Of a stretch of 25,066 nucleotides of DNA, positions 1 to 18,828 are shown one piece after another. The notes under the pieces are model-generated. The model saw only the letters and a list, made by a program, of their open reading frames with translations. It searched no databases and was not told the DNA's origin. This stretch comes from Escherichia coli. GTDB taxonomy: Bacteria > Pseudomonadota > Gammaproteobacteria > Enterobacterales > Enterobacteriaceae. Position 1 is the stretch's first letter, and each line of letters opens with the position of its first letter. The position numbers and the translations under genes were made by a program. The stretch lies in assembly GCF_003334815.1 (NCBI RefSeq), contig NZ_QOWO01000048.1; one strand, given 5' to 3'.

Positions 1-39
1 AAAAAATCGGCTCAAACATGAAGAAATGAAATGACTGAG

Positions 40-336
40 TCAGCCGAGAAGAATTTCCCCGCTTATTCGCACCTTCCCTAGGCCATTAGCTAACAAAGCA
101 AGATAATTCGCCCTTAACCTTCTAGCATCAGCAAGTGAGATAGCTGGGAAAGCACCTATCCCTATCATTGTTCTTTTTTTTGTAGTTGGTCGTTGATAGC
201 GAAAGCGCCAGAGTTTTTTACCGTTTGTTTTCACTATCAGAAAAAGCCCATCACCATCATGCAGTGTTAGATCCTTATCTAGCGCTTTAGCACGTAGAAC
301 TTCGGTGTTGCTCAGAGGGCGTGTTGTCCGAGCCAC
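40..336 (-). pseudogene. P4-family (phage-type) tyrosine integrase, N-terminal fragment only (98 aa, then in-frame TGA at 40-42)
   Basis: Translation MARTTRPLSNTEVLRAKALDKDLTLHDGDGLFLIVKTNGKKLWRFRYQRP... matches the N-terminal arm-binding domain pattern of P4-like integrases (DGDGL..L.V...G.K.W.FRY). GTG start at 334-336 preceded by AAGGAG (revcomp of 344-349). Integrases of this family are about 400 aa; no catalytic domain continues in any frame through positions 1-39. Lies directly downstream of the ssrA 3' end, the classical island integration site. Confidence 0.6.
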
Positions 337-354
337 TTGGCCGCTCCTTAATGA

Positions 355-408
355 ATTGGTATACGCGTTTAGGTATACATCCTATCGTATACCTAAACGT
401 ATACCAAT
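355..408. repeat. Near-perfect inverted repeat upstream of the integrase fragment; candidate operator or arm-type site
   Basis: Left arm 355-378 attggtatacgcgtttaggtatac and right arm 387-408 gtatacctaaacgtataccaat are reverse complements apart from a 2-nt indel. Inner perfect 13-bp arms at 366-378 and 387-399, 8-bp spacer atcctatc. Contains four GGTATAC motifs. Confidence 0.7.
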
Positions 409-519
409 AATCACTGGATTTAGCGGGATATCCTCGGACAACGGTAGACACAAAAAAGCCCACAGGGCTTGCGCCATGCGGGCTTTCAGGATTTCTCCGG
501 ACGTATCCGGAAGAGCAAG

Positions 520-882
520 TGGTGGAGCTGGCGGGAGTTGAACCCGCGTCCGAAATTCCTACATCCTCGGTACTACATGCTTAGTCAGTCTTTACATTCG
601 CTTGCCAGCTGCGGACGGACACGCCACTAACAAACTAGCCTGATTAAGTTTTAACGCTTCAACCCCAGGCAGGGCTTCCACGCGATCTCTTTTGGGTTTG
701 ACCTCTCTTGATCCCCGTCCTAAGAGCGGAGGCTAGGGAGAGAGGGCTCTAAGCAGGTTATTAAGCTGCTAAAGCGTAGTTTTCGTCGTTTGCGACTATT
801 TTTTGCGGCTTTTTACGAGGCCAACCGCCCCTCGGCATGCACCTTGGGTTTCGCAAATCCCGTCGAATCCAGAATCAGCCCC
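520..882 (-). ncRNA. ssrA: tmRNA (SsrA, 10Sa RNA), 363 nt
   Basis: Reverse complement reads GGGGCTGATTCTGGATTCGACGGG at the 5' end (882 downward) and ...GTTCAACTCCCGCCAGCTCCACCA at the 3' end (to 520), matching E. coli tmRNA. Internal tag reading frame present. Confidence 0.97.
761..793 (-). other. ssrA: tmRNA tag-peptide reading frame encoding ANDENYALAA plus stop
   Basis: Reverse complement of 761-793 is GCAAACGACGAAAACTACGCTTTAGCAGCTTAA = A N D E N Y A L A A stop, the canonical E. coli degradation tag. Confidence 0.9.
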
Positions 883-12865: not shown

Positions 12866-14092
12866 TTATCTCACCAGCTTTTCGGCACGCTGGTGTTTGG
12901 CCTGATACATATTGTGATCGGCAAGCTCTTGTAATTTTTCCGCAGAGGCGTGCTCAATGGTCATCGCGTAACCAATGCTTAATGTCATGGTGGTCTGATG
13001 GCCATTATGAAGATCAAACGGGAGATTAAAGATTTGTGTCAGTGCTGAACATATCTGCTGCACTTCAGATTCCGACTGTACATCATAGAGCACCATAGCG
13101 AATTCATCGCCGCCCAGGCGGTATGCTTTATGTCGCAGCCCGCCAAATTCAGCTAACCGTTTTGCGATTTCAATCAAGACTCTATCGCCCGTCGCATGAC
13201 CCCAGGTATCATTGATGTATTTGAAATTATCGCCATCAAGAAATAGTAACGCCGACGTTTTTCGGGCATCGGAATTGTTCATCAACGTGTTGATGCCGCT
13301 ACGAAACGCTGCGCGGTTAGCCAGCCCGGTTAATGGGTCATGTAGCGCGGTACGTAGAAGCTGCGCATTTTTAGCCTGTAAACGAAGCTGCCACTCTTCC
13401 ATTTCATCCAGCAGACTGTTGAAGTCGAGAGCGAAGCGGTGAAACTCAGCGATACGTTCTTCCGAAACTCGTCGGGAAAAATTGCGGTTGGAACGCACAT
13501 CATGTACGACATCGGTGATATTTTTCAGCGCTTCTACCAGGCCATTGTGCAAATGGCGGGTGAGGGTAATTGCGATGCCTGATGCCAGCAGAATACAACC
13601 GGTCAGTACGGCGAGCGAAAACCAGATAAAATGGCTGATTGAACTGTCGCGAGCGGTTAAGCGTACTTCGCCAATGGTTTCACCATTGTGACGAATCGGC
13701 TGAATGATGGGGGCAGGGAAGAGCCAGTGGCTTATGAAATTACTGAAAGTATCGCCTGGATCCTTACGGGTGTAATGCCAGGATGCCAGAATATTTTGCT
13801 GCTTATCACGTACTTCTGCAGTTGAAAATTGCCCTTGCTGGCCCAGCGCTGCCAGTGTTTCAGTTGCTGCAGGGCCATCGGCAAAAACGACAGCTGCTTC
13901 CAGACTGTAAGTCATTGTTGCTGCTGTCAGTGCCAGGTTTTTTTGCGCGTACTGTTTCAGGGTCAGCACCGAGGTCACGGAAAGCAGCAACCAGATCAGC
14001 ATCATAGTGATAAATATGCTGGTCATACTGATGTTGCGTAATGCTCTTTTAAACGTGGGGCGCTTATTAAGAGAATTATCGTTATCCATCAT
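12866..14092 (-). CDS. dgcN: Inner-membrane diguanylate cyclase YfiN (DgcN), 408 aa
   Basis: Translation [37 protein letters not shown]... with an N-terminal transmembrane/periplasmic region and a C-terminal GGDEF domain ([12 protein letters not shown]). Confidence 0.93.
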
Positions 14093-18784: not shown

Positions 18785-18828
18785 TGTTCGTCTTCGCATT
18801 CTGTTTCACACGACGAAACGCCTCCCAT

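Follow-up and report, generated by a model that had tools for sequence, protein, structure and literature searches.

The ssrA locus and the boundary of the element

The DNA analysed here, referred to as the window, is a stretch of 25,066 nt. Both ARAGORN and Rfam find a single tmRNA gene in it, ssrA (520-882, minus strand); the tag peptide is ANDENYALAA, and the Rfam match, RF00023, is full length with 295.8 bits. At 897-926, just upstream of the ssrA 5' end, lies the sole sigma-70-like promoter match in positions 1-1100 (TGGTCA-18-TATACT), which is probably that of ssrA.

Alignments with K-12 and with variant elements locate the attL core region in the ssrA 3'-terminal segment TTCAACTCCCGCCAGCTCCACCA (520-542, minus strand). 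The shared sequence stops right past the CCA at 520, where divergence from K-12 and from the variant elements starts. The DNA beyond this CCA end varies among element variants, whereas ssrA itself does not, and by this comparison it is element-borne; to note, the K-12 annotation has CP4-57 begin 15 nt before the end of ssrA. An intrinsic terminator, a hairpin followed by a T-run (448-486, minus strand; inverted repeat 455-468/473-486), is located 3' of ssrA on the element side of attL. A terminator scan reports a terminator-like site there, 470->456 with the tail TTTTGTGTCT, and the alignments show that the ssrA terminator is kept across the variant elements and K-12.

At the far end of the element, relatives carry degenerate copies of the ssrA 3' segment that share CCGCCAGC: TTCAAACTCCGCCAGCCCCA at about 13815-13834 of locus L006 (strain Z1323CEC0018) and TTCAGACTCCGCCAGCCCACCA at about 18800-18822 of locus L014 (strain GF3-3), each just past the alpha gene. 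These copies, identified by alignment, are taken as the expected attR. The direct repeat anticipated in the preliminary description of this DNA thus exists in relatives in degenerate form; a search of one relative for exact or near-exact 15-23-nt copies returned only the ssrA site and one chance match within glaH.

A chimeric reading frame adjacent to ssrA

Directly downstream of the tmRNA end, in the usual orientation, an ORF of 98 codons runs from 336 to 40 on the minus strand, with a GTG start and a TGA stop at 40-42, exactly as first described. A Shine-Dalgarno motif, AAGGAG (344-349, minus strand), can be read in the sequence 7 nt upstream of the GTG, which is also the RefSeq start of the intact int gene. 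Pfam analysis reveals a single domain in the product, Arm-DNA-bind_3 (PF13356, formerly DUF4102; residues 9-85, E 8.6e-20, model positions 2-73 of 83), and neither the core-binding (PF22022) nor the catalytic domain (PF00589). The product also aligns to the arm-binding domains of solved CP4-like integrases, 3JU0 (E 8e-15) and 3JTZ/3RMP (E 6e-11). Its earlier assignment to the N-terminal arm-binding domain of P4-type integrases is therefore confirmed.

The intact allele, WP_000124709.1, is 397 amino acids long, in line with the roughly 400 proposed for full-length members, and comprises Arm-DNA-bind_3 (9-91), Phage_int_M (107-198) and Phage_integrase (213-377). Up to residue 86 the window product does not differ from it; beyond that, the two are unrelated. 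The integrase part, codons 1-86 (79-336, minus strand, 100% identical to the same codons of WP_000124709.1), carries the arm DNA-binding domain and stops at its close, just before the linker; codons 87-98 (GKVRISGEILLG) and the TGA are the translation of an IS5 end. Alignment with CP4-57 IntA, proposed as a means of placing the truncation, gives 53% identity, and only residues 1-86 (window 336..79) are integrase. The ORF is accordingly a chimera of 86 integrase and 12 IS5 codons, and of the two readings first offered for it the truncated remnant is the one that holds. With the Phage_int_M and Phage_integrase domains cut off from the arm domain, int in the window cannot encode a recombinase; on these alignments, it is a disrupted and nonfunctional member of the P4/CP4-57-type tyrosine integrases. 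A small terminator-like hairpin in the IS5 end, at 33-45 (GGCTGACTCAGTC then ATTTCATTTC), falls where the chimeric ORF has its stop codon.

The IS5 end and its junction with int

Window positions 1-77 (plus strand) are the terminal 77 bp of IS5, at the end downstream of the insH stop. They align without a mismatch (77/77) to the low end of K-12 IS5A, starting at the terminal repeat GGAAGGTGCGAATAAG, a 16-bp inverted repeat that is the reverse complement of 62-77. By this alignment, insH would run on the plus strand toward position 1. Searched alone, positions 1-77 give 8210 matches spread over 1733 E. coli genomes and lying beside IS5-family transposase genes; one of these matches sits directly after such a gene. 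When positions 1-520 are compared by megablast with 5,426 complete E. coli genomes, many 100% matches are obtained, every one of them covering 78-520 only.

The homology to uninterrupted loci ends exactly at 78, the first base of a CTAG (78-81) that forms the IS5 target at the insertion point. This CTAG occurs once at the site in the uninterrupted allele GGCCTAGATCC, which reads ...AATGGC CTAG ATCCACAAG..., whereas the window reads ...AATGGC CTAG|GGAAGGTGCG.... The target and duplication motif of IS5 is 5'-YTAR-3' (PMC5009759); the CTAG at the junction fits it, and the insertion point falls after int nucleotide 259. The window thus shares with IS5 (K-12 IS5A/insH; IS5-like ISKpn26 in RefSeq naming) the same terminal 77 nt, the 16-bp repeat and a YTAR-type target. 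It differs from a full IS5 in showing one end only, the transposase gene and the target duplication being outside the window.

Comparison of the two alleles indicates that the integrase is shortened by insertion of IS5 at CTAG, and neither by an unexplained deletion nor by a sequencing error. IS5 has jumped into the CTAG after int nucleotide 259, so that translation now runs 12 codons into the IS5 repeat end and stops at the IS5 TGA. Nothing is missing from the att arm that separates ssrA from int, which retains the 3' core of ssrA, the terminator, the ribosome-binding site and four GGTATAC repeats. The preliminary description needs revision in this light. It is true that no integrase sequence runs through positions 1-39, but the break lies at 77/78 and not at 40. 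The sequencing error considered at 40-42 gives way to an insertion, window 1-77 being IS5, and this IS5 end is a second accessory-genome signal where only one had been recognised.

GGTATAC repeats in the int-proximal arm

The window has five copies of GGTATAC where 1.16 would be expected; a stretch of 48 bp contains four of them. These four form a 22/24-nt imperfect palindrome at 355-408, with copies at 358-364 and 372-378 on the plus strand and at 387-393 and 399-405 on the minus strand. The fifth copy, at 898-904, overlaps the promoter match at 897-926, and the motif match there is probably due to chance.

The same motif is found on the other side of the element in relatives: the far arm in Z1323CEC0018 possesses two tandem direct GGTATAC (13741-13759 of L006), about 60-80 nt from the attR core. 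In the variant satellite of GF3-3, whose Int is 77% identical, GGTACAC stands at the matching places on both arms (L014 18878-18896 and 29812-29859). When the Int variant changes, the arm motif, GGTATAC or GGTACAC, changes with it, and does so on both att arms. K-12 CP4-57 (AGGCCCA) and the int2 of a second island (GGGACCC/GGCACCC) each show a motif of their own, arranged in the same layout. We infer from the position, which corresponds to a P4-like layout, and from this covariation with Int that 355-408 contains putative arm-type sites of the integrase in the int-proximal att arm, over the likely int promoter.

No int promoter scores above threshold in the promoter scan. Autorepression is reported for P4 Int, which binds DNA close to where int transcription starts (Piazzolla et al. 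2006, as cited in PMC2951348); by analogy, it would fit repeats that overlap a weak int promoter. The palindrome at 355-408 also folds strongly as RNA (z = -5.3). A purely RNA-hairpin reading was nevertheless set aside because the far-arm motif consists of direct repeats without an inverted partner and changes in concert on both arms. The GGTATAC repeats provide a clean and testable prediction of arm-type sites for this integrase subfamily.

The satellite in closely related genomes

At least 11 complete chromosomes, for the most part from poultry isolates, match window positions 78-25066 (24,989 bases) at 100% identity, and the strain comparison suggested at the outset shows int to be intact in all of them. 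In three of these genomes, Z1323CEC0018, TUM3755 and E2, the intact int heads the same P4-like satellite, roughly 10.5 kb in size in relatives and integrated at the ssrA 3' end. Past int, the gene order in these three is two hypotheticals, psu, ogr/delta, sid, a gene for an AlpA-type helix-turn-helix protein, an Icd-like gene, the derepression (epsilon) gene, a DUF5375 gene and the alpha primase-helicase gene. Pfam analysis of the satellite gene set identifies the families Psu, Ogr_Delta, Phage_AlpA, Phage_ASH, Derepression and primase/D5. P4-like satellites are defined by the core set int, psu, delta, sid, alpA, epsilon as well as alpha (PMC8628076), and the closest relatives, whose sequence matches the remainder of the window at 100% identity, have this set. 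By analogy with these genomes, the parent element of the ORF is a P4-like phage satellite at the ssrA 3' end. The same int heads the ssrA-linked satellite in relatives, and the reading of the window edge as the attL (proximal) boundary of an element integrated at ssrA is borne out. About 44% of E. coli isolates are reported to carry P4-like satellites (PMC9122126).

Behind the satellite, relatives carry a tandem second island with its own integrase, followed by ypjA and ileY. In Z1323CEC0018 this island (noted at L006 14000-15229) encodes a serine recombinase, two ParB-like proteins, a RelA/SpoT-domain protein and a relaxase. The same strain harbours ISEc12 (IS21 family; L006 8613-10915) just upstream of alpha, while in TUM3755 and E2 alpha comes directly after the DUF5375 gene.

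Between int and psu, the P4 defence hotspot of the nearest relatives contains a cassette of two genes, outside the window (L006 2068-3626; L007 1543-3101; L016 10684-12242), encoding proteins of 219 (WP_000343805) and 299 amino acids (WP_024238668). Neither gene has a Pfam or PADLOC match. Each of the two accessions is included in Table S1 of Rousset et al. 2022, with different partner accessions, as 'hypothetical + hypothetical', and the cassette is a candidate uncharacterised defence system. In the diverged ssrA satellite of GF3-3, the same hotspot encodes the antiviral reverse transcriptases DRT3a/DRT3b (L014 25239-28446).

Comparison with P4, CP4-57 and an IS1-interrupted allele

The intact window-type allele resembles that of P4 (NC_001609) in its order of arm-binding, central and catalytic domains, and in both elements int adjoins an att core formed by the 3' end of a small RNA gene. 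P4 has an annotated 'attP arm sequence repeat': two copies in tandem and an inverted one lie next to the int start, and the other side of the core has a further tandem pair, a layout matched by the GGTATAC copies of the window and, on the far arm, of the relatives. The gene order int-hotspot-psu-delta-sid...alpA/vis-cI region-epsilon-alpha is likewise the same in P4 and in the window's relatives. The differences concern the target, the motif and the state of the integrase gene: the P4 core TGAGTCCGGCCTTCGGCACCA lies at a tRNA-like 3' end whereas the window element targets ssrA, the P4 arm motif is GGGGGCA instead of GGTATAC, and the window int copy is interrupted by IS5. P4 Int is absent from the 15 best phage matches to the window-type integrase, which themselves reach at most 57% identity.

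CP4-57 of K-12 is integrated at the same ssrA 3' end in the same orientation, and its IntA (b2622) belongs to the same integrase family, the 53% identity extending over the N-terminal part. Also shared are the terminator conserved behind ssrA and, upstream of int, a comparable cluster of repeats. In contrast to the window element, its repeats are AGGCCCA/TGGGCCT, its IntA is intact with 413 amino acids, and it is not a P4-like satellite.

A further comparison is with an allele of this int that IS1 interrupts, likewise at the ssrA locus and in the same satellite (GCA_047262435.1, locus L016; draft contigs L019-L021), and that is split just after the arm-binding domain. The interrupted gene lies at 8681-10651 in L016/L017 and is found at the starts of L019, L020 and L021. 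It yields a 110-amino-acid Arm-DNA-bind_3 ORF and a 216-amino-acid catalytic-domain ORF. Here, IS1 was inserted after int nucleotide 306 (codon 102) with a 9-bp duplication, CAGATAGCC, as a simple insertion that left the satellite in place. The insertion sequence, the 9-bp duplication and the site (nucleotide 306 versus 259) all differ from the window allele; this is an independent event, present in many assemblies. The 216-amino-acid C-terminal fragment is on record in 77 index blocks. It was considered as the remainder of the window strain's IS5 allele and rejected, the contigs read being IS1-interrupted alleles of other strains. One Logan contig (L018 9459-10651) has ORFs of 154 and 216 amino acids that no insertion sequence separates. 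In strain 510016, IS1 and a truncated autotransporter gene come directly after the same int; the island is deleted and no satellite is present.

Distribution and age of the IS5 allele

The IS5/int junction is present in none of the 5,426 complete E. coli genomes searched by megablast, and a degenerate pattern for either IS5/int junction (TTCGCACCTTCCCTAGRYCMWYARS) has no match in metagenome contigs or species-representative genomes. The exact 98-amino-acid product is found on one public contig only, CBDBYT010000060.1 of GCA_965212685.1 (25,289 bp). It possesses the same junction and ends 118 nt into IS5 (L015 10260-10377), i.e., 41 nt beyond the window. Where visible in both, its IS5 stretch agrees with IS5A by eye, the formal alignment covering 77 nt. 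The left edge of the window is inside IS5, as is the end of CBDBYT010000060.1, a typical break of draft assemblies at a repeat, and the window resembles a trimmed version of this contig.

The 100% identity of the flank to genomes with an intact satellite implies that the insertion is very recent. As far as these comparisons go, the IS5 insertion is recent and strain-specific, in an otherwise unremarkable background.

Interpretation and alternative explanations

Taken together, the junction, the intact alleles and the relatives make it very probable that the ORF 336->40 is the 5' end of the int gene of an ssrA-integrated P4-like satellite, into which IS5 transposed at the CTAG after nucleotide 259. 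Two explanations that deny this are given little weight. That the ORF might be a genuinely short, evolved arm-domain-only gene, the other reading initially offered, deserves practically no credence: a ribosome-binding site, a start codon and almost the whole arm-binding fold are indeed kept, but the last 12 codons and the stop belong to the IS5 terminal repeat region, the identical gene has 397 codons in genomes identical over the 24,989 bases of the rest of the window, and the product is known from a single public contig. A chimeric contig end joining IS5 to an int that is really intact would be an understandable artefact in a draft contig ending inside a multicopy repeat. It is most improbable here, as int and IS5 have no common repeat to mislead an assembler other than the 4-bp CTAG at the join, and the IS5 terminal repeat meets int precisely at its first base and at the canonical target, as expected of real transposition and very unlikely for a random chimera.

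Concerning the DNA beyond position 1, a simple insertion with the satellite retained is the likely arrangement. That cargo lies there, as the preliminary description proposed, is likely by analogy with relatives. It is favoured because the flanks are identical to those of intact-satellite genomes and because the IS1 allele sets a precedent in the same gene. IS5 would then continue for about 1.2 kb beyond position 1 and be followed by the second CTAG and ATCCACAAGTTCAAGC (int nucleotide 260 onward); the far IS5 end would be joined to CTAGATCCACAAG, with the distal junction expected to read ...GGGACTTGTTCGCACCTTCC|CTAG|ATCCACAAGTTCAAGCTGAAC. The remaining 311 int codons and roughly 10 kb of satellite would come next, with hotspot cargo, psu, delta, sid, the alpA-like and icd-like genes, epsilon and alpha. 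Alternatively, an IS5-associated deletion or rearrangement (IS5-IS5 recombination, adjacent deletion) could have removed or relocated the 3' part of int along with all or some of the satellite, leaving unrelated DNA on the far side of IS5. The distal junction has no match, either as the junction pattern in the metagenome and species-representative collections or as the predicted 317-amino-acid product (TTG start inside IS5), of which no record is found, and the public contig stops 118 bp into IS5. Some close relatives have at least one other IS5 copy, and the satellite-free locus of strain 510016, int followed by IS1, demonstrates that satellite loss does occur at this locus. Such a loss is nonetheless unlikely in the window strain: the identity of the flank to intact-satellite genomes implies a very recent event, an exact IS end at a canonical CTAG is the mark of primary transposition, and the analogous IS1 event in the same int was a simple insertion.

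A further question is whether the 98-residue remnant does anything. If expressed, it might act on the GGTATAC sites, repressing the int promoter or competing with a cognate integrase, and thereby stabilise the island or block ssrA-targeting satellites. Its ribosome-binding site, start codon and the four int-proximal repeats are intact, it spans the region aligned to solved arm-binding domains, and the autorepression of P4 Int cited in PMC2951348 offers a parallel. Independent disruptions elsewhere also leave arm-domain ORFs, of 110 and 154 amino acids, although their break positions are not independent evidence because the disrupted-allele query could detect only breaks upstream of codon 182. 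Against these points, the allele is present in one assembly only and hence shows no sign of selection for the remnant; the remnant lacks Pfam model positions 74-83 and has an unrelated tail of 12 residues in their place, and no strong promoter is predicted. Activity of the remnant on these sites is thus very unlikely. The broader proposal, a small DNA-binding regulator or dominant-negative protein at ssrA-linked att sites that would stabilise the satellite or hinder incoming satellites with the same integrase type, is highly improbable; were it true, insertion sequences breaking int right behind the arm domain, as IS5 does at codon 86 and IS1 at codon 102, would be favoured and not accidental.

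Consequences for annotation and mobility

The proper annotation for the ORF 336->40 is that of an IS5-disrupted integrase pseudogene and not of a short arm-domain protein. If the satellite is retained, it has no recombinase of its own: it could neither excise nor integrate by its own Int and would be locked in the chromosome unless a cognate Int were supplied in trans, the contents of its defence hotspot being fixed along with it. The disruption by IS5 of an integrase of known kind in a common satellite is an ordinary event, every component of which is of a known kind. It has little wider significance: this is a textbook case in which an insertion sequence disrupts a gene of a very common type of mobile element.

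The window is otherwise conserved core genome, from smpB to clpB, and 5194 of 5426 genomes cover at least 80% of the window. The idea that the right end of the window also falls in a repeat found no support: it lies about 190 nt beyond the stop codon of clpB, and neither rRNA nor any other Rfam match is present there. The RyfD sRNA (Rfam RF02768, 125 bits) is located at 22183-22321, immediately upstream of and overlapping the start of the clpB ORF (22290-24875).
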